From: a virus
IMG/VR virus record: IMGVR_UViG_3300034069_000356
Location: 1 to 44,405 of that record
Length of the DNA: 44,405 nucleotides
Direction: 5' to 3' (one strand)
Below are positions 3,742 to 26,893 of the stretch, piece by piece. The position numbers and the translations under genes are program-made. Positions within the stretch are counted from its first letter, which is position 1, and each line of letters starts with the position of its first letter. The notes under the pieces were generated by a model. The model saw only the letters and a list, made by a program, of their open reading frames with translations, had not been told where the DNA came from and ran no database searches.

Positions 3742-4115
3742 CAGAATGGCGCGTCGAAATCTTCGCCAATGTCAGCGAAATTGCCCCGGCTTTCCTGCTT
3801 CGGTGCTGGGCGTTCTTGGCGCTCTGCCTTGCCGCCCATCAGGTCAACCTCGTTAGCGCGGATTTCAAGCTGCATCTTGCCGTCCCATTCGCGCAATTCT
3901 AACTCGCCTGACACGGCCACCTTGCCGCCCTTGAGGAGATACGGCTGCAATGAAACGCCGCGCTTGCCCCAAATCTGGACGCGGAACCAATTGGTCTGCT
4001 TCTTGTCGCCAAAGCCCTGCGACGATGCGAGCGAGAATGAGCACACCTCGCTGTTGCCGGCGTTGCGGAGTTCGGCATCCTTGCCGATACTGCCGGTTAC
4101 GGTGATGGTCTGCAT
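3741..4115 (-). CDS. ssb: single-stranded DNA-binding protein
   Basis: OB-fold pattern (ITVTGSIGKDAELR..., WFRVQIWGKRG..., GGKVAVSGELELREW) and an acidic C-terminal tip, EDFDAPF. Confidence 0.9.
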   Translation of the reverse strand: MQTITVTGSIGKDAELRNAGNSEVCSFSLASSQGFGDKKQTNWFRVQIWGKRGVSLQPYLLKGGKVAVSGELELREWDGKMQLEIRANEVDLMGGKAERQERPAPKQESRGNFADIGEDFDAPF

Positions 4116-4810
4116 TAGTAGGCTTCCTTCTTGGTCTCGACCTTGACGCCATCAATTGGGCCGGTCTTGAAATGGGTGCGGACATATTCCGCGATAAAAT
4201 CGGTCATAGCCGGCTTGTCGTTCTTCGCGATCCAGTAGAGCGCGGCCTTGAAATCCTTGATCTCATAGACCTGTACCGTTCGCATCCCCTTAACGGTGTC
4301 TTTGCTGGCGCGAGCGGCTTGCTTCTTTGCTTCCTCTGCCTGGGCCAAAAGATCGTCAGCCGCACGCTGCTCCGCGATGCTTGCCGAACGCGCTTGCTCA
4401 GCCGCCTCTCTGGCCTTTTGTGCAGTCTCATCGGCAATCCGCTGCGCTTCTAGCCGTGCTCTCTCCTTCTCGGCTGCAAGCTGCTCCTTGTAGGGCGCCT
4501 GAGCGGATACCAGACACTTAACTTGACGATCTAGATCATCCTGTGTCGGCTTCCACCGTGCTACCTCGGCTTTCCACACCTCATGCAGTGGTTTGGTGTA
4601 CTCATCGCGAGCTACGTCAACCGCCTTGCGAGCCGCCTTTAGCTCCTTGAGCAGTTTATCCGTGTCCTTGAGCTGGCCTGCGTCTTTGACCGTCTCACCG
4701 TCAAGCCAGTGCTCCACTTCGGCCAGAATATCCGCGTAGGGCTCTAGCGCAAGGTCGATCGGGTCAGGCGGATTGTTGTCGCCAATCGTGGCGCGCGGGT
4801 TCGTTGCCAT
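4115..4810 (-). CDS. coiled-coil hypothetical protein of the recombination module
   Basis: N-terminal GDNNPP motif, then a long Ala/Glu/Lys/Arg-rich coiled segment. AAGGAG RBS. Lies between erf and ssb. Confidence 0.75.
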   Translation of the reverse strand: MATNPRATIGDNNPPDPIDLALEPYADILAEVEHWLDGETVKDAGQLKDTDKLLKELKAARKAVDVARDEYTKPLHEVWKAEVARWKPTQDDLDRQVKCLVSAQAPYKEQLAAEKERARLEAQRIADETAQKAREAAEQARSASIAEQRAADDLLAQAEEAKKQAARASKDTVKGMRTVQVYEIKDFKAALYWIAKNDKPAMTDFIAEYVRTHFKTGPIDGVKVETKKEAY

Positions 4811-5664: not shown

Positions 5665-5934
5665 TCATTTCAAAGCACGATCGATTTTATCAGCCATCCT
5701 CCTTAATTCATCTGCCGTAAAATCCGCCTTTCCCTGATTGCAACGCTTGCAACATGCAACAATATTGGAAATTGTATCTAAACCACCCTTACTCAAGGGT
5801 AGAACATGGTCAGCAGTCGGCCTGTTTGTATTGCCATGCAGGCTTAAAGCCCTGTTGCAATAAAAACATCTATAGCCTTGGTTTTCTGTTATCAAAGCCA
5901 CAAAAGCATCTCTTTGTTTTCTGGTCATTTGCAT
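5665..5934 (-). CDS. HNH endonuclease
   Basis: CFYCNRAL...ADHVLPLSKGG...NIVACCKRCNQGK is a classical HNH zinc-finger core. The segment is visibly AT-richer than its flanks. Confidence 0.9.
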   Translation of the reverse strand: MQMTRKQRDAFVALITENQGYRCFYCNRALSLHGNTNRPTADHVLPLSKGGLDTISNIVACCKRCNQGKADFTADELRRMADKIDRALK

Positions 5935-11538: not shown

Positions 11539-11732
11539 GCGACTATCGGCGAAATCTTGCTTGGAGGGCGGGGCATAAGGCCGCGCTGGCTAATAAAACA
11601 CTGGCCGCAAATAACCGACAGGAAGGTACGATCTTTTACGACGATTGGTGCGACGGGCATAACGACGCCCTAAACGCCCTCGCCGTCACGCCAACGCCTT
11701 CCTCGCCACAGGGGGAGGGGGAAGATGCATGA
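11535..11732 (+). CDS. hypothetical protein
   Basis: ATGA overlap. 65 aa. Confidence 0.6.
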   Translation: MSDYRRNLAWRAGHKAALANKTLAANNRQEGTIFYDDWCDGHNDALNALAVTPTPSSPQGEGEDA

Positions 11733-12222
11733 GATACCACTTACCCAAGGCTTATTCGCCTTAGTAGATGATGCTGATTTTGAGCGCGTTTCTCAGCATA
11801 GGTGGCACGCTGTCCGCCATAAGCATACATTTTACGCGTCGGCAATAGCAAACAATAGAAGTATCTATCTACATAGATTCATTTGCGACGATATCGAGAA
11901 GCCGTTTGTGGTTGACCACAAAAACCGAAACGGTCTTGATAATAGACGATGCAATTTACGAAAAGCGACACAATCTCAGAATATGGCTAACTCCCCCAGA
12001 GCCTTTGGCAAATACGGCTATCGTGGCATATCATCCGATAAGGCACGGGGAAGATACAAAGCAATCTGCGGTGATCGGTTATGCGGAACCATCTCAAGGG
12101 GGAAATGGAGGAATACAGTTGAGGAGGCCGCGCATGATTACGACAGCTTAGCTGTTAGCAAATATGGTGAATTTGCTATTCTAAATTTTCCTGACCGAGA
12201 ATCCGGAGGGCTTTCCGCATGA
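11725..12222 (+). CDS. HNH endonuclease with an AP2-like DNA-binding domain
   Basis: LHRFI.....VVDHKNRNGLDNRRCNLR is an HNH_3 core, followed by YRGIS....GRYKA...........EEAAHDYD...YGEFA.LNF (AP2-like). Strong GGGGAGGGGGAAG RBS. AT-rich island. Confidence 0.85.
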   Translation: MHEIPLTQGLFALVDDADFERVSQHRWHAVRHKHTFYASAIANNRSIYLHRFICDDIEKPFVVDHKNRNGLDNRRCNLRKATQSQNMANSPRAFGKYGYRGISSDKARGRYKAICGDRLCGTISRGKWRNTVEEAAHDYDSLAVSKYGEFAILNFPDRESGGLSA

Positions 12223-14800: not shown

Positions 14801-15243
14801 GGCCTAGCTCCATACAAATCCGCTTCGGCAGCACGTCGCCGCGTCAGGCCAGTCATCACCTTGCCAGCAGCCTTGTTCCAATATCTAAATTGCTTTTGCG
14901 CCCCGGCATAATCACCAGCCTTGTGCAGCTTCAGCAGGGTGGACCGGCCGAGTGCGCCTAGGCCAAGATTGAAGGCAAACGATACCAGCGCGTCAAACTG
15001 GCTCTGCGATGTAGGATGGCCATCGATCAGGGAGGTTACGCCTACGCCTGTGCGGGTAAGATCCTTCACAAGAGCCGAAACAGCCTGGTCTTTGGTCCAT
15101 ACAGTGCTAGGATGCACGTCGGGACCGGTGTGGCCAATTCCCACGGTCCAAGGATCGCTGCCCGACGCCGGGTCAGGGTACGCCTTGAGCACGCAGCCTT
15201 CAAAGCTGGTCACAAGCGTCTGACAGGCGAAAGAGGGCGTCAC
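14797..15243 (-). CDS. GH24 phage lysozyme (P22 gp19 / lambda R-like endolysin)
   Basis: FEGCVLKAYPD....WTVGIGHTG, QFDALVSFAFNLG and GLTRRRAAEADL parallel P22 gp19 (EEGERLKAYSD..PTIGVGHTG, QYDALCSLIFNIG, PRRRRERALF). Confidence 0.9.
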   Translation of the reverse strand: MTPSFACQTLVTSFEGCVLKAYPDPASGSDPWTVGIGHTGPDVHPSTVWTKDQAVSALVKDLTRTGVGVTSLIDGHPTSQSQFDALVSFAFNLGLGALGRSTLLKLHKAGDYAGAQKQFRYWNKAAGKVMTGLTRRRAAEADLYGARP

Positions 15244-16991: not shown

Positions 16992-18992
16992 TCAGAAGTT
17001 GTTCCCCACAGCCTTGTTCGTGCCTGTGCCGCCATCAGAGACCTGAGCAGAGGTAAACCGATTGTAGGAAACGGAGTACCTATCCGACGCTCCGGCTTGG
17101 ATCTCAACCGCAAACTTCTGCGTGCCCGCCCCAACATTGGAATCATCACCGATGCAGTGCGACACCGTGAACTTTGAGCATCCGGCCTTAAACAGCAGGC
17201 CGCTGTAGGTTCCGGCAGAGGCCGTTCCATTGCCACGGATCGACATACCGGTAACAGCAATGTTTGTAGCGGTGTTTTCAAACACCAGGCCATGCCCGCC
17301 AGCATCATATGCCTGCCCGCCAGAGAACTTGAATCCGTCCACGGCATGGAAATATCCAGCCATGCCACCAGGACCGGAAAACCAGCAATTGTTGAAATCA
17401 AATTCAACTGAGTTCTGGCAATCGATCCCACCGATGGAGCTATCAAAATAGACCGACGAAAATTTGTTATATTCCGGCCGCGATCCATTCACGTTGCTTG
17501 TTGCGGTCGTAATCATGGAAAACTGGCCGCCGATCACGTCCCCATCTGTGAAGATGAAAGCCTCTGTGTGTTCCGTGAGACGGATGCCACCGAGAGAGTT
17601 GGGTACGAAAGCGGCTGCGACTGTCGCTGTCGCCCCGCTGGTAGAGCCAGTCAGAGTAGCGCCAACCGTGAAGGCCGTTGACCCGTTGACACGATAGATG
17701 CTGCCATTGATCTGCGCGATAGTTGCAGGAGCGGGGCCAGTCGTGAAATGCTCGCCTACAACGAATGTCCCGGATATGGGGGTTAACGTCAGATACGTGT
17801 AACCAGTGGTGATAAGAAACTGATTTACGTAAACGTCACCCGAGCCGGTGCCCATGAGACCAGAGGCAAAACACTCATACAGGAACACGTTGGACACGTT
17901 GCACGATGCTGATCCGTTGCGGAAAACGATCCCATTCCATGCGATTCCACAGAATATGTCACGGATGGCGCATAGGAACCCACCGCTGACATCGATGAAT
18001 GTCCCCGTGGTCGGGAGAATCGTTGCGCTGCTATACCCGCAGCCTATGCCTTCAATGGTGGCATTCTTGACAGTGCTGATCTGAAAACCGTTGGTAGAGG
18101 TTGTGGACCACAGCATCATGGTCTTAGCCAGACCTGCGCCAATCGTCCTTTGCCCCTTGGTAACGGTGATGAACTGCCCATCATGGAACATGAAACCACC
18201 GGGCCAGCGGACGGTAGAGCCGCCACCAGCCAGAAGGACGCAAGCATCATAGGCTTTCTGAGCCAGCGCACGACCATCCGTGCGAGCTGAGTTATTCCAA
18301 GCGTCTCCGTTGAACCAAAGAACGCTGACATCAATCAGCCCGGCAACCGCGCCAGTCCCCGTAATGTTGAAAATCTGCATTTCAGGCGCATCGATGCCGC
18401 CGCTGAATGTCACGGTTACGCCGGTTGGGATTACGAACCGTGCGCCGGGTTGAAAAAACACCTTATGCGCAATCGTCAGGTTTGACGCTATCAGGTACAA
18501 GCCAGGGGGCACAATAAATGGCACGCTATCGGCGGATACAATAGCGGCCTTGGCATCTGTTACCCCGGTGCGGGGGGCCGCAAGCGTTACCGAGGCTGTT
18601 GGCGACAGAGACATAAGAGGCGTTACAACAGACGCATCAGCCTTAAGCGCCAACGCAGAGGTAACCGACCTTTGCGACGGTGCGACAGTGGTTGAACTGC
18701 CTAGCGCATCGGCAACCGTCCCGGCCGGAAGCTGCGCCACCGACCCAACAAACACATTCAGCTTTTCACCGATAACCCGCCCACCATAGCGATAGGTTAT
18801 GTCGTATGAGCCGCTATCGGTGTTGAAATAATATGTCCCGTCTGAGTTGGTCAGAAACGGGTTGCTCAGGGTAGACGTGTCATCAGCCGTAAGGACTGCT
18901 AGAGTCCCTGTGCCAGACGCTACTACCGAAACCCAAGCGCCTCCGATCGCCGCATTAAACTGGTCAAGCAATGTATCGGAATAGCGCGCCAT
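16992..18992 (-). CDS. tailspike / polysaccharide depolymerase (right-handed beta-helix type)
   Basis: 666 aa. Gly/Thr/Asn-rich repetitive beta-strand pattern typical of pectate-lyase-fold tailspikes. Follows the head-binding-domain protein. Confidence 0.7.
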   Translation of the reverse strand: MARYSDTLLDQFNAAIGGAWVSVVASGTGTLAVLTADDTSTLSNPFLTNSDGTYYFNTDSGSYDITYRYGGRVIGEKLNVFVGSVAQLPAGTVADALGSSTTVAPSQRSVTSALALKADASVVTPLMSLSPTASVTLAAPRTGVTDAKAAIVSADSVPFIVPPGLYLIASNLTIAHKVFFQPGARFVIPTGVTVTFSGGIDAPEMQIFNITGTGAVAGLIDVSVLWFNGDAWNNSARTDGRALAQKAYDACVLLAGGGSTVRWPGGFMFHDGQFITVTKGQRTIGAGLAKTMMLWSTTSTNGFQISTVKNATIEGIGCGYSSATILPTTGTFIDVSGGFLCAIRDIFCGIAWNGIVFRNGSASCNVSNVFLYECFASGLMGTGSGDVYVNQFLITTGYTYLTLTPISGTFVVGEHFTTGPAPATIAQINGSIYRVNGSTAFTVGATLTGSTSGATATVAAAFVPNSLGGIRLTEHTEAFIFTDGDVIGGQFSMITTATSNVNGSRPEYNKFSSVYFDSSIGGIDCQNSVEFDFNNCWFSGPGGMAGYFHAVDGFKFSGGQAYDAGGHGLVFENTATNIAVTGMSIRGNGTASAGTYSGLLFKAGCSKFTVSHCIGDDSNVGAGTQKFAVEIQAGASDRYSVSYNRFTSAQVSDGGTGTNKAVGNNF

Positions 18993-19081
18993 AACCGCCT
19001 AACAAATCAATGCCCCCCGGCGCGGAGGCGTTAGCGGCCGAGACCAATCTATATCAGGCTACACCATAAGGGGCAAGCCCA

Positions 19082-19783
19082 TCAGGGGGTATGGGAGCCT
19101 GTGGCGTCGATGTGGAAACGAAGCACGCCGCCCACGACAAACTCTATCGTCTGTGTAACTGAATTAAGCCGGATATAGAACTGATCCGAGGCGTTCAGCA
19201 GCATGTTTCCGTTGGTATCCAACGTCAGATATGCGGAGCCGGCCGTCCCAAGATTTAGGGCACCATTTGCGATGGCTACCGACCCACTCGATATCCCAAT
19301 CCCTCCCGTCGTGATATTGAGCGCGCCGCCCAATGTCCCACCGGAAGATGGAAGATAGGGCAGAGGCCCAACCGCACTAACAAGCCCGGTTTGGTCAGAT
19401 AGGGTCAAAAGATCCCGGCCAAACGGGGTTGTGGGGTCTCCCGCAGCAATAGCGGTGAGATCGTCGTCCAATGGCTGGTAGGCGATGCCATCGTAAAAAT
19501 ACCGTGGCGCGTAATCCACCAGCGACCCGTCGTTATCACGGATGCGCATGGAATAATCATCTTCGGCGATAAAGATCGCAGCGGGGGAAGCACCGTTAAC
19601 AATTCTGCCGCCGACAGTCCGGATAGGCTGAGCCGCAACGATCGTCAGCGCGGAATCCCAATACACCGTAATCGGGTTAACCTCGGGATCACCGTTTGCG
19701 ACACCGATAAAGATCTGTCCGCCATCGAGCAGCGCACCGCGAGCATCAATAAAAATCGGGATGGGGTTGGTTACCTTTTGCAT
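19082..19783 (-). CDS. tail fibre/spike protein with a P22 gp9-type N-terminal head-binding domain
   Basis: NPIPIFIDARGALLDGGQIFIGVANGDPEVNPITVYWDS...YSMRIRDNDGSLVDY parallels P22 gp9 ([42 protein letters not shown]...HSMAIYDANGSQVDY). Confidence 0.75.
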   Translation of the reverse strand: MQKVTNPIPIFIDARGALLDGGQIFIGVANGDPEVNPITVYWDSALTIVAAQPIRTVGGRIVNGASPAAIFIAEDDYSMRIRDNDGSLVDYAPRYFYDGIAYQPLDDDLTAIAAGDPTTPFGRDLLTLSDQTGLVSAVGPLPYLPSSGGTLGGALNITTGGIGISSGSVAIANGALNLGTAGSAYLTLDTNGNMLLNASDQFYIRLNSVTQTIEFVVGGVLRFHIDATGSHTP

Positions 19784-23885: not shown

Positions 23886-24581
23886 TTACCACCCATACGC
23901 CGCAGAGGGAAATGCACCAGAACCGTTCCATGCCGTCGTGCCGCCATTAAGCACTCCCGATGACCCTATCCCACTAAGGATATTTTGGAATGCCGCATAA
24001 GGCGAAGCGGCAGCCGTGGCATTAGCATTGCCCAGGGCCGATGTCGTGTTTGCCGACGAATTGACATAATTTGCGCTAGCACCACTCAGAGCCCCAAGAG
24101 CGCTTTGACCAGTACCCACAACGGAACCAAGATTGCCTAACTGCTGCTGATAAAGCGAATTGAGCAGGTTCGAACCAAAATTGCTTTCCGATAGCGCCCC
24201 ATTGCCGCCGCGCAAGCCACCCGTAGCCGCAAGCGACTGGTTGAGCGCATCCAGACCGGAATTATACTCGCTAGTGTAAAGCGGACTAGACTGAAGCTGA
24301 GAGATAGCGCCCTGCTGCTGTTGCTCAGCGGTGTACGGGCTTGCCGAGGTGCCGGTGTTACTGTCCCCCAAGCCGAGCATGCGTAGAATCTGCTGGTTTG
24401 CCGCGTTGCCTGCGTTGATGTTCGGGGTTGCGTCGCTCGACAGCGTGTTGAACTGCTGCTGCTCTAGCGCAAGCTGTTGCTGTTGAGCCTTAGCCTCCGC
24501 GCTAGCAGCTGACGAAGTACCCTTGCCGCCAGCGATACCACCGAGCAGAGACCCGCCCGCAGAGATGAGTGCCGACGCCAT
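23886..24581 (-). CDS. internal virion / ejection protein (gp7 position)
   Basis: 231 aa, Gly/Ser/Gln/Asn-rich. Its position matches P22 gp7 (229 aa). Confidence 0.55.
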   Translation of the reverse strand: MASALISAGGSLLGGIAGGKGTSSAASAEAKAQQQQLALEQQQFNTLSSDATPNINAGNAANQQILRMLGLGDSNTGTSASPYTAEQQQQGAISQLQSSPLYTSEYNSGLDALNQSLAATGGLRGGNGALSESNFGSNLLNSLYQQQLGNLGSVVGTGQSALGALSGASANYVNSSANTTSALGNANATAAASPYAAFQNILSGIGSSGVLNGGTTAWNGSGAFPSAAYGW

Positions 24582-25015
24582 CAGTTATAGTCCTCTTTGC
24601 GAATCTCATAGATCACATCGGTTTCGTCCGTCGTCTCGCAACGCTTCGCCCCGATCGCGCTGTTGAAAATGATCGCCTTGAGGTTAGAGCGCGGAGTCGA
24701 GCCCCATACTGTCCTAGCCCCATGATCGAACATGAATTGCACCATCGCCCGCCCCGTCTCGATGGCCTTGCGACCACGGCAGCGGGGGCCGAACAGCGTG
24801 TGAGACTGATAGATCCCCGGCAGATTCATCTCAAACAGCGCAAGAGCATCGTCACCATCAGTCAATGCCACAATCCCCGTCTGTGTGGACGGAGGGGCAA
24901 CTGCCGGCGTCAGGTCAACCGGCAAACCCTGCGTGTGGAAAAACTCCCGAACGCCGTCCTGATTGGCTATCCGGTTAGCTAATTCCGCGTCGTGGGTATG
25001 ATGCACCGAAACCAT
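24581..25015 (-). CDS. hypothetical protein at the gp14 position (possible GNAT-like fold)
   Basis: RCRGRKAIETGRAMVQFMF resembles GNAT motif A (R/Q-x-x-G-x-G/A). First gene after the non-coding island. Confidence 0.6.
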   Translation of the reverse strand: MVSVHHTHDAELANRIANQDGVREFFHTQGLPVDLTPAVAPPSTQTGIVALTDGDDALALFEMNLPGIYQSHTLFGPRCRGRKAIETGRAMVQFMFDHGARTVWGSTPRSNLKAIIFNSAIGAKRCETTDETDVIYEIRKEDYN

Positions 25016-25039
25016 GCGCCGCCATATGATCGATGCTCC

Positions 25040-25560
25040 CGGCGCAGAGCATGTTGGGGCTGCCGTACTGCCACACTAAAGCACCGATGCAATTTAGGCA
25101 ATAGTCCGCTTTCCGCTTACGGGTGGTAACAGACAACCTCAGTACCTCACGGCTTACCCGGATCGCTTCTGCCTTCCTGTTTACCCGCGATGCCCGTCTG
25201 CCTAAGCAAGGTGGGCCAGACCCGGATGGAGCAGTGAGATGCCAGCTAGATAGTCACCACCAATTCGTGTCGCGGATATCCCTCGCCCGCGTCGGGCTAT
25301 GGGGGTGCGGAAATCCGGTAAGCCGGCAAAGACACCCAGGAACATCGAGCCTCATTCAGGATTGCTCAGCCCGTTGTGGCTACTAGGGCTTAACCGGACT
25401 GAACTCGGTTCCACCTCTTGGCCTGTCCGTTCTTTCGGATGGCCCCCGGTCAGATGGGATCAAAAAACCGGACTTGCAGTTTCCGTGGGAATGTTGCATA
25501 TGGTGGCTGCACACCCAAACGGGCGGTTGGAGGGCTCATCTCTGACCGCCCAATTTTTTT
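25040..25560 (+). ncRNA. candidate large structured non-coding RNA (5' end unknown)
   Basis: No credible ORF. Many local helices. Ends in an intrinsic terminator on the + strand. See findings. Confidence 0.3.
25521..25560 (+). terminator. Rho-independent terminator
   Basis: GGGCGGT (25521-25527), a 17-nt loop, ACCGCCC (25545-25551), then AATTTTTTT up to 25560. Confidence 0.75.
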
Positions 25561-25616
25561 AGTTGTTTGGTAACCCCAAGTCAAGCATACAGGGGTTCTC
25601 ATTTGGAGGTGCAATC

Positions 25617-25934
25617 ATGAGCCGATTTTTTGCTTTCGCAGCCCTTGTCGCGATGCCCACGCTGGCAACCGCTCAGATTCAGACCACATGCCAGCGCGTC
25701 TGGAATACCGTGCAATGCCAGACTTACGGCAACGCTCCGCAGCAGATGACACAGCAGCCTGTTTATCAGCAGAACCCGATCATCAATCAGATGCTTTCGC
25801 CCGGAGCGGTGAATGGATTTGCTATCGGGTTGGAGCAGGCCCGCGAACGTCGCATCCAGCAGCAGCTAGAACTTCAACAGCAGCAGATCGATAATTGCCG
25901 GTATGCTGCCGCTCACGGCTTTGCGTGCGATTAA
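25617..25934 (+). CDS. secreted small Gln-rich protein with two Cys pairs (moron-like, opposite strand to the late genes)
   Basis: ORF 25563..25934 trimmed to ATG 25617 (GGAGG 7 nt upstream). Signal peptide MSRFFAFAALVAMPTLATA followed by QIQ. CQRVWNTVQC and CRYAAAHGFAC. Poly-Q segment QQQLELQQQQ. Confidence 0.65.
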   Translation: MSRFFAFAALVAMPTLATAQIQTTCQRVWNTVQCQTYGNAPQQMTQQPVYQQNPIINQMLSPGAVNGFAIGLEQARERRIQQQLELQQQQIDNCRYAAAHGFACD

Positions 25935-26893
25935 TTCGCTTCGTAGCTGCCGGAAATAACCAGTGTTGCTCCGTTAGCGCCAGGATAGCTGTTGTCGTAG
26001 AACTGCAAGCCGCCAACCGTTCCAGCCGCGCTAAGTTGCCCCGATAGCATCTTGCCTGTGAGGGACGAGTCCCTGCCCACTAGCACGGACGACGACTTTG
26101 CCGCGACAGGAATTGTGAACGTGATCGACCCTGCGCCAGTGCCATTTGTCGGTATGCTGATCGAGATCGACACGAACACCGTTTTGCCGACCTGAAGATA
26201 CCGCCCGGTAGCTGTTGCTGTCGTCAATGTGCCGCTAGTGGCTCCGATCGTAGGGGTGAATGCCGTCCAAGCAGCCGCAAGGGAAGAATAAGGCGCCACA
26301 GCAGCCCCTACGAACGCGGTAGTGGCTAATTGGGTTGTGGAGGTGCCGGCAGTCGCTGTTGGGGCTGTAGGCGTACCTGTGAAGCCGGGAGACGCTATCG
26401 GTGCATAGCTGGTGAGATTGGCTTTTACATAAGCTGTCGTAGCGATTGACGTGTCATTGTCCGCAGTGGCTGGCGTGGGGGCCTTCGGATCGCCTGTGAA
26501 GGTTGGAGACGCCAATGGGGCATAGGTGCCTAGCGCAGAAATTACATATGCAGTACTAGCGGCCTTGGTGGAGTTGTCCCCAGCGGTAGGCGTGGGGATT
26601 GTTACCGTGCCCGTAAATGTCGGGTTGCTTGCTGGTGCGGCAGCGTTGGCCGTGGACTGAGCGGCATTCGCTGTGTTCAATGCGTTCTGCGCGTCGGTTT
26701 CGGCCTGTAGCGCGATACCTTGAACCGAATTAGCGGTTACGACTGCTTTGGCAGCAGAGGCCTGTGCAGCCGTAGCGGAATCAACCGCCTGCTGAGCCAA
26801 GCCAGACTGATCCTGTATCGTTTCCAGCGCTCGAATGGTCTTCGGATCGTTGGAAATCTTCTGGATATCTGCCCGAGTGAGGGTCGTGCTCAT
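25931..26893 (-). CDS. tail needle/fibre protein with three fibre repeats
   Basis: Ala/Gln-rich coiled N-terminal part, then SNPTFTGTVTIPTPTAGDNSTKAASTAYV, ASPTFTGDPKAPTPATADNDTSIATTAYV and ASPGFTGTPTAPTATAGTSTTQLATTAFV. Occupies the P22 gp26 position. Confidence 0.75.
   Translation of the reverse strand: MSTTLTRADIQKISNDPKTIRALETIQDQSGLAQQAVDSATAAQASAAKAVVTANSVQGIALQAETDAQNALNTANAAQSTANAAAPASNPTFTGTVTIPTPTAGDNSTKAASTAYVISALGTYAPLASPTFTGDPKAPTPATADNDTSIATTAYVKANLTSYAPIASPGFTGTPTAPTATAGTSTTQLATTAFVGAAVAPYSSLAAAWTAFTPTIGATSGTLTTATATGRYLQVGKTVFVSISISIPTNGTGAGSITFTIPVAAKSSSVLVGRDSSLTGKMLSGQLSAAGTVGGLQFYDNSYPGANGATLVISGSYEAN

Follow-up and report, generated by a model that had tools for sequence, protein, structure and literature searches.

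The window analysed here, 44,405 nucleotides in length, is the approximately 44-kb genome of a P22-like podovirus assembled from a metagenome (Logan SRR23972082); judged by gp10, its closest cultured relative is Sphingopyxis phage VSN-002 (45% amino-acid identity). Within the structural module (17-40 kb), the largest gap between genes is a stretch of 601 bases with no credible ORF, the next largest being 154 and 120 nt. In the early region, a gap of 553 nt contains an 89-aa ORF (5665-5934, minus strand) in which an HNH-like Cys/His pattern can be recognised by eye. The early region also has a 165-aa ORF (11725-12222, plus strand) that matches Pfam HNH_3. A Pfam scan of ten ORFs from the early and late regions revealed no integrase.

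The 601-base gap separates two divergent genes (Table 1). To its left is the minus-strand gene of a 144-aa protein, followed in the ejection block by gp7-like, SLT/gp20-like, and gp16-like genes, as identified by Pfam and PHROG. The 144-aa protein has 17 homologs, all 17 of which are encoded on metagenomic phage or prophage contigs, and none contains a Pfam domain. To the right of the gap, the plus-strand gene of a 105-aa protein is convergent with a tail-fibre-like gene, which it overlaps by 4 nt.

Table 1. Features in and around the 601-base gap, and the second copy of the leader module (positions in the window)
Feature	Position	Strand	Remarks
Second copy of promoter and pseudoknot leader	19005-19090	-	R1 33.2 bits, E 3.5e-9
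Gene of 144-aa protein, gp14 position	24581-25015	-	Heads the ejection-protein block
Spacer, pseudoknot to ATG	25016-25034	-	Small hairpin usual among module copies, often with GNRA loop
H-type pseudoknot in 5' leader, ~45 nt	25035-25066	-	Covariation on alignment A3; covariance model R1
Sigma70-type promoter (predicted) of ejection-gene block	25073-25101	-	Hexamers and spacing conserved in 19 aligned sequences
Orphan non-coding core	25102-25520	.	No coding, structure, or promoter signal; no homolog
Intrinsic terminator (predicted)	25521-25560	+	Stem 25521-25551, then AA, T7
56-nt spacer	25561-25616	+	Shine-Dalgarno GGAGG at 25605-25609
ORFan gene (moron), 105-aa protein	25617-25934	+	Codon log-odds +0.18, coding-type GC phase
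320-aa tail-fibre-like protein	25931-26893	-	PHROG tail-fibre matches

A preliminary description of this DNA had noted that the gap interrupts a P22-type gene order, and this is indeed the case. The relatives have gp10, a needle gene of about 160 codons, the 144-aa gene, and gp7 in succession, with only 70-105 nt between the needle and 144-aa genes, and the island is missing. Scans of GTDB and IMG/VR with the family alignment added 18 further loci, including prophages in Sphingomonas lycopersici and S. melonis. In the window, the needle is replaced by the 320-aa protein, which has only its first ~26-40 residues in common with needles. At 80 loci collected with the fibre protein, the fibre gene is tightly trailed by genes on the same strand.

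Since the relatives lack the island, the fibre shares only its N-terminus with needles, and the moron gene is an ORFan, the segment from ~25102 to 26775 can be read as a swapped-in fibre/moron module. On balance, we regard the gap as a composite left by a module swap rather than as a single RNA gene, a reading that we hold to be somewhat the better bet. The 320-aa protein itself is a chimera of a needle-type N-terminus (~26-40 aa) and a fibre-like body with PTFTG-type repeats, and it marks the right-hand recombination boundary. A leftover of the replaced needle gene was looked for inside the island and rejected, as the C-terminal needle motif (..GG.VAWRQ.) is missing from every frame.

Two of the related loci have accessory sequences of their own. 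In one (L012, 3976-5000), a poorly coding stretch of ~0.6-1 kb lies upstream of the leader module described below; on its opposite strand, ORF 4072-4467 includes what may be a small exported peptide rich in Gly and His, and a further ORF of 185 aa is membrane-like. The architecture, with a divergent accessory gene on the opposite strand, is analogous to that of the window, while the sequences are dissimilar. In another (L013, 5423-6118), a 231-aa ORF with a faint GIY-YIG match is located between the 140-aa homolog and gp7, and may be a homing-endonuclease insertion within that operon.

The left edge of the gap is conserved. When the sequences upstream of the 144-aa gene were aligned across relatives, a module appeared on the minus strand with a constant order: a -35 element TTGCC, a 17-nt spacer, a -10 element TAnnnT, ~6 nt, the sequence (U/A)CGGC, a short linker that is often CAUAG, and a 4-bp stem around UGCGCCGG. 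In the window, the predicted promoter consists of TTGCCT at 25101-25096, a 17-nt spacer, and TAGTGT at 25078-25073. Among the 19 aligned sequences, the TTGC of the -35 element and the TA..T of the -10 element are kept at fixed spacing. It is also the only promoter-like site in a relaxed scan of 24950-25700, in which the phage's own minus-strand promoters match the consensus well. Because the -10 element ends only 6-7 nt ahead of the first pseudoknot strand, the pseudoknot is probably at the 5' end of the transcript, which would begin at or beside it.

The pseudoknot is built from two helices. In helix 1, ACGGC (25066-25062) pairs with the loop bases GCCGG (25043-25039), while in helix 2, GCTC (25050-25047) pairs with GAGC (25038-25035). 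In this phage, helix 2 is lengthened to ATGCTC/GAGCAT, the very helix that the preliminary description had listed at 25033/25047; it is thus the stem of the leader pseudoknot, read on the wrong strand. The loop is UGCGCCGG. Of 18 module copies examined, 17 have the start codon 15-25 nt beyond the pseudoknot, and a weak Shine-Dalgarno sequence is often present in between.

Support for this structure comes from compensatory changes. In alignment A3 (19 sequences), 94.7% of cells are paired, and seven of nine pairs show compensatory changes; the covariation score is 0.519 compared with 0.179 for shuffles, and none of 500 shuffles scored as high. Both helices contribute: helix 1 is 93.6% paired with three of its five pairs changed on both sides, and helix 2 is 96.1% paired with all four changed on both sides. 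The stem occurs as GCUC/GAGC, GUCC/GGAC, GCCC/GGGC, and GCGC/GCGC, with pairing in 63 of 64 cells when the register is fixed. The partner of the 5' (U/A)CGGC is formed by loop bases 4-8, and this pairing covaries too, occurring as CGAG/CUCG (L011, L019), CGGU/ACCG (L004, L030), and CGGA/UCCG (L021, L024); one single pseudoknot position shows the pair types CG, AU, GC, and UA. The register of the pseudoknot was initially picked by eye, but it is anchored independently by the conserved loop and supported by controls in which the partner was slid by 1-3 columns, where pairing fell to 37-48%. Since the pairing between the 5' (U/A)CGGC and the loop covaries as well as the stem does, the element is assigned to the H-type pseudoknots. 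It has no match in Rfam.

A covariance model (R1) built from the leader alignment matches 21 places in 26 related loci and has no match in 480 kb of unrelated loci. The copy described above scores 42.9 bits (25027-25115). A second copy fills the 89-nt gap directly 5' of a 666-aa gene at the tailspike position (16992-18992), and reads TTGCCC, 17 nt, TATAGA, UCGGC, and GCCUC-CGCGCCGG-GGGGC. With two copies, the number of internal late transcription units of this kind in the phage would be at least two. Two copies were likewise found in a Sphingomonas lycopersici prophage (L015, 2904-2988 and 4135-4220): one precedes the 140-aa homolog, and the other follows a 234-aa gene and precedes a 668-aa gene. 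A third match in the window (15131-15217, minus strand, 16.3 bits, E ~1e-3) was set aside as probably false, as it lies inside coding sequence and does not keep the pseudoknot pairing.

Sequence comparison lends good support to the prediction that the leader is an RNA element acting in cis within internal late transcription units. The left ~90 nt of the gap, which the preliminary description had counted as part of the island, belong instead to this conserved minus-strand promoter and leader. The expectation of an undescribed structured RNA in the gap has thus been borne out in part: there is one, but it is a predicted cis-acting pseudoknot leader of ~45 nt on the minus strand at the left edge and not a plus-strand RNA of 0.55 kb.

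The rest of the gap is a different matter. It was described earlier as free of genes, and the coding tests agree. Two 87-aa plus-strand ORFs are present (25123-25386 and 25299-25562), as had been listed, but their codon-usage log-odds are -0.27 and -0.14 per codon, on a scale where true frames average +0.26 (5th percentile +0.15) and wrong frames average -0.34. GC3 periodicity and positional GC bias are absent from the gap, and its ORFs have no match in Pfam or PHROG.

The core was compared with a wide range of sequence collections. Blastn against phage and plasmid databases gave no match, and nhmmer and blastn against 109 related loci (29 collected with the 144-aa protein and 80 with the fibre protein) found island similarity in none. 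Exact-word scans of IMG/VR and JGI metagenomes with island segments yielded only four chance 19-mer matches with no extension. At the protein level, the concatenated six-frame translation had nothing at E <= 10 among 5.8 billion proteins, and tblastn of the six frames against all loci collected returned nothing. When the frame nearest the terminator was compared in full by HMMER with 1.84 billion representatives, only spurious matches appeared, to a 21-residue motif that recurs within one large repetitive protein (9 of 21 identities). A template repeat of a diversity-generating retroelement (DGR), a CRISPR array, a MITE or IS remnant, iterons, and self-duplication were considered and rejected, since repeats of these kinds are absent from 24900-25700, and the island shares none with other parts of the window.

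Structure signals are equally scarce. All the short helices listed earlier are at their sites: besides the pair that belongs to the leader, these are GCCCG-cgt-CGGGC at 25285-25297, GGGTG/CACCC at 25303/25333 enclosing CCGG-taag-CCGG, and a GGCC hairpin at 25420-25445. However, short helices are at chance level, and the label "helix-rich" does not hold, for the stretch folds no better than dinucleotide shuffles (minimum free energy z-score for the whole region -1.32 on the plus strand and -1.41 on the minus strand). Of the 120-nt sliding windows, most of those reaching a z of about -2.5 include the terminator, and in the left half of the stretch folding is worse than in shuffles. The repeated motifs noted earlier (AACCGGACT and CCCGGAT, each twice) are real, but no more numerous than expected by chance: by our arithmetic, 600 nt should contain ~0.7 repeated 9-mers and ~11 repeated 7-mers.

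Searches for known RNAs support the earlier impression that no described family is present. Rfam 15 at gathering thresholds had no matches over the whole window (tmRNA, RNase P, 6S, SRP, riboswitches, ROOL, GOLLD, HEARO, ribozymes, and introns among the families covered), and ARAGORN found no tRNA or tmRNA genes there. In permissive mode, the sole Rfam match in 24900-25700 was Acido-1 on the terminator hairpin, which at 15.7 bits (E 2.4) stays far below the threshold of 50. A search of the literature brought up nothing relevant.

Two further features of the core can be recorded. The plus strand of 25100-25300 is C-rich and G-poor (GC skew ~-0.1), folds worse than shuffles, and has a composition like that of a Rho-utilisation site. 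Just upstream of the terminator, 25461-25471 (CAAAAAACCGG) is 91% complementary to moron codons 2-5 (CCGATTTTTTG, 25622-25632). This 11-nt complementarity could allow pairing if both segments were on one read-through transcript, and maybe it is due to chance.

The sole recognisable functional element of 25102-25560 is the predicted plus-strand intrinsic terminator, which the preliminary description had correctly identified. It is by far the best terminator-like site of the whole 44-kb window, with a 13-bp stem (GGGCGGTTGGAGG/CTCTGACCGCCC, including eight G-C pairs), a 5-nt loop, and AA followed by T7. Folding energy favours the plus strand (-23.8 compared with -17.9 kcal/mol), because three G-U pairs turn into mismatches on the minus strand, and the U7 tract is found on the plus strand only.

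The terminator is followed at a distance of 56 nt by the ATG of the 105-aa gene. The product is Gln-rich with four cysteines and a signal peptide, and has no homolog among 5.8 billion proteins and no match in Pfam or PHROG; its codon usage and GC phase are those of a coding sequence. Like other morons, the gene sits between conserved genes and has no counterpart in close relatives. A promoter and a downstream terminator of its own were not found: there is no plus-strand promoter-like site, and the terminator lies upstream of the gene with none downstream. The best promoter candidate in the spacer (TTGTTT, 17 nt, CATACA) is weak and passes no scan.

How, then, might the locus work? At its left end (25016-25101), an internal sigma70-type promoter would start a minus-strand transcript at or next to the pseudoknot, with the start codon of the 144-aa gene 15-25 nt further on. 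The pseudoknot would sequester the 5' end of the mRNA and sit against the ribosome-binding region. Its most likely role would be the control of mRNA stability, translation initiation, or both, possibly by means of a phage protein.

For the remainder (25102-25560), the proposed history is that untranslated DNA came in together with the fibre body and the ORFan moron when these took the place of the needle gene's C-terminal part, and that it now serves as the upstream untranslated or regulatory region of the moron. The terminator would stop or attenuate plus-strand transcription ahead of the moron, and might thus be an insulator or an attenuator; alternatively, it may be the surviving end of an upstream unit that has since been lost. 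Its place 56 nt ahead of the ATG would suit a riboswitch or attenuator leader, for which Rfam offered no aptamer. A search for an antiterminator found no convincing alternative pairing, which weakens the attenuator version. An untranslated upstream region of the moron is the most likely nature of the core, its function being suggested by position. Among the points against it are that functionless DNA of 0.4 kb is seldom retained by phages, and that a strong terminator with seven U residues also fits a small Hfq-type sRNA.

It is tempting to consider such an sRNA more closely. A phage-specific, trans-acting RNA of ~50-300 nt could start on the plus strand at a promoter that escaped recognition within 25102-25500 and end at the terminator, with the moron expressed from a weak promoter of its own in the 56-nt spacer. 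The genome's strongest terminator is specific to the plus strand and has a U7 tail; that it stands before the moron and not directly after it implies a plus-strand unit distinct from that gene, the region is non-coding, and the spacer offers just enough room for a promoter and a short UTR. However, the core has no plus-strand sigma70-like promoter even under relaxed criteria, though the phage's minus-strand promoters fit the consensus. By eye, an ECF-type GGAAC..CGTT is there but with 28-nt spacing, and a sigma54 match is absent. No homolog was found in any collection searched, hence there is no sign of conservation, and the sequence upstream of the terminator gives no structure signal. Some of this weighs less than it seems to: no promoter was found for the moron either, so the scans may miss relevant promoters, and with the core known from a single sequence, missing covariation is absence of data and not evidence of absence. 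We consider such an sRNA unlikely. The broader claim that 25102-25560 encodes some phage-specific plus-strand regulatory RNA, either an sRNA acting in trans or a long leader with a sensing function that controls expression of the ORFan secreted protein, is slightly less doubtful but still improbable. If true, the phage would have a plus-strand regulatory RNA with no relative in any current database.

A decayed or truncated plus-strand protein gene from the donor, with the terminator as its relic and the DNA now functionless, is as improbable as the sRNA. A frame is open from 25105 to 25386, starting right beside the swap junction, and a second one from 25257 to the T-run; the stretch is located at a recombination junction, and the core is an orphan like the adjoining ORFan gene. 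But both frames have non-coding codon log-odds, whereas the moron acquired with them scores as coding, and GC3 periodicity is absent. No credible homolog of any of the six frames exists among 5.8 billion proteins, the HMMER scan having given only the spurious repeat match, and at 58% GC, chance alone should produce open frames of ~90 codons.

The least likely reading is that of the preliminary description, one large structured plus-strand RNA of ~0.55 kb with its own terminator; for all that the stretch is ORF-free, ends in a plus-strand terminator, and matches no known family, this is very hard to reconcile with a whole-region z of -1.3, a left half that folds worse than shuffles, a left ~90 nt that belong to the minus-strand promoter and leader, the lack of a promoter, and related phages that lack the stretch altogether, with no homolog elsewhere. 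A large non-coding RNA would have been notable, and the evidence does not support that claim.

Some parts of the locus resemble known systems. The classical phage moron consists of a promoter, a gene, and a terminator, lambda bor and lom being examples. As in these cases, the accessory gene of the window is missing in close relatives, lies between conserved late genes, and is predicted to encode a small exported protein; as with bor, it is on the strand opposite to the late operon. In contrast to bor and lom, the terminator is upstream of the gene, the promoter is not recognisable, and there is ~0.46 kb of extra non-coding DNA. Furthermore, the gene convergently overlaps the fibre gene with no downstream terminator.

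For the leader, the closest parallels are the T4 gene 32 mRNA leader and the E. coli rpsO (S15) operator, which are cis-acting leader pseudoknots that act as translational operators. Similar to these, the present element is a small H-type pseudoknot in a 5' leader, no more than ~20 nt from the start codon, with its structure kept by compensatory changes. The differences are that it has no sequence or Rfam relationship with either, that it appears to be at the 5' end of the transcript and always coupled to a promoter, and that copies of it stand ahead of several different late genes, namely the 144-aa gene, the one at the tailspike position, and, in the S. lycopersici prophage, the 668-aa gene. 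As far as sequence can tell, it is a new motif of a familiar class, the cis-regulatory leader pseudoknots.

The put RNA of phage HK022 is a promoter-proximal, cis-acting antitermination RNA of ~65-70 nt that forms two stem-loops and occurs in two copies per genome. The leader shares with it the position immediately downstream of a phage promoter, a presumed action in cis, and the number of two copies per genome. However, it is a pseudoknot and not a pair of stem-loops, and in a terminator scan the ejection block had no downstream terminators to override. With regard to the core, DicF, IsrK, and StxS are prophage-encoded, Hfq-dependent sRNAs. Like them, the core is non-coding, located in a phage accessory region, and equipped with a strong terminator with a long U tail; unlike them, it has no promoter, conservation, or identifiable seed.

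The locus illustrates clearly how, in the exchange of a needle for a fibre, an otherwise compact structural operon can acquire untranslated DNA along with an ORFan gene on the other strand. The leader, on the other hand, is a compact motif with strong covariation and no Rfam match that is found ahead of genes for ejection proteins and of tailspike-type genes in a group of P22-like phages and prophages, of which the two prophages from named species are both in Sphingomonas. Phages of the P22-like type are usually pictured with one long late operon, and the leader points to internal, separately controlled late transcription units. Being small and easily mutated, it would lend itself to testing how the dose or timing of the ejection proteins is set.
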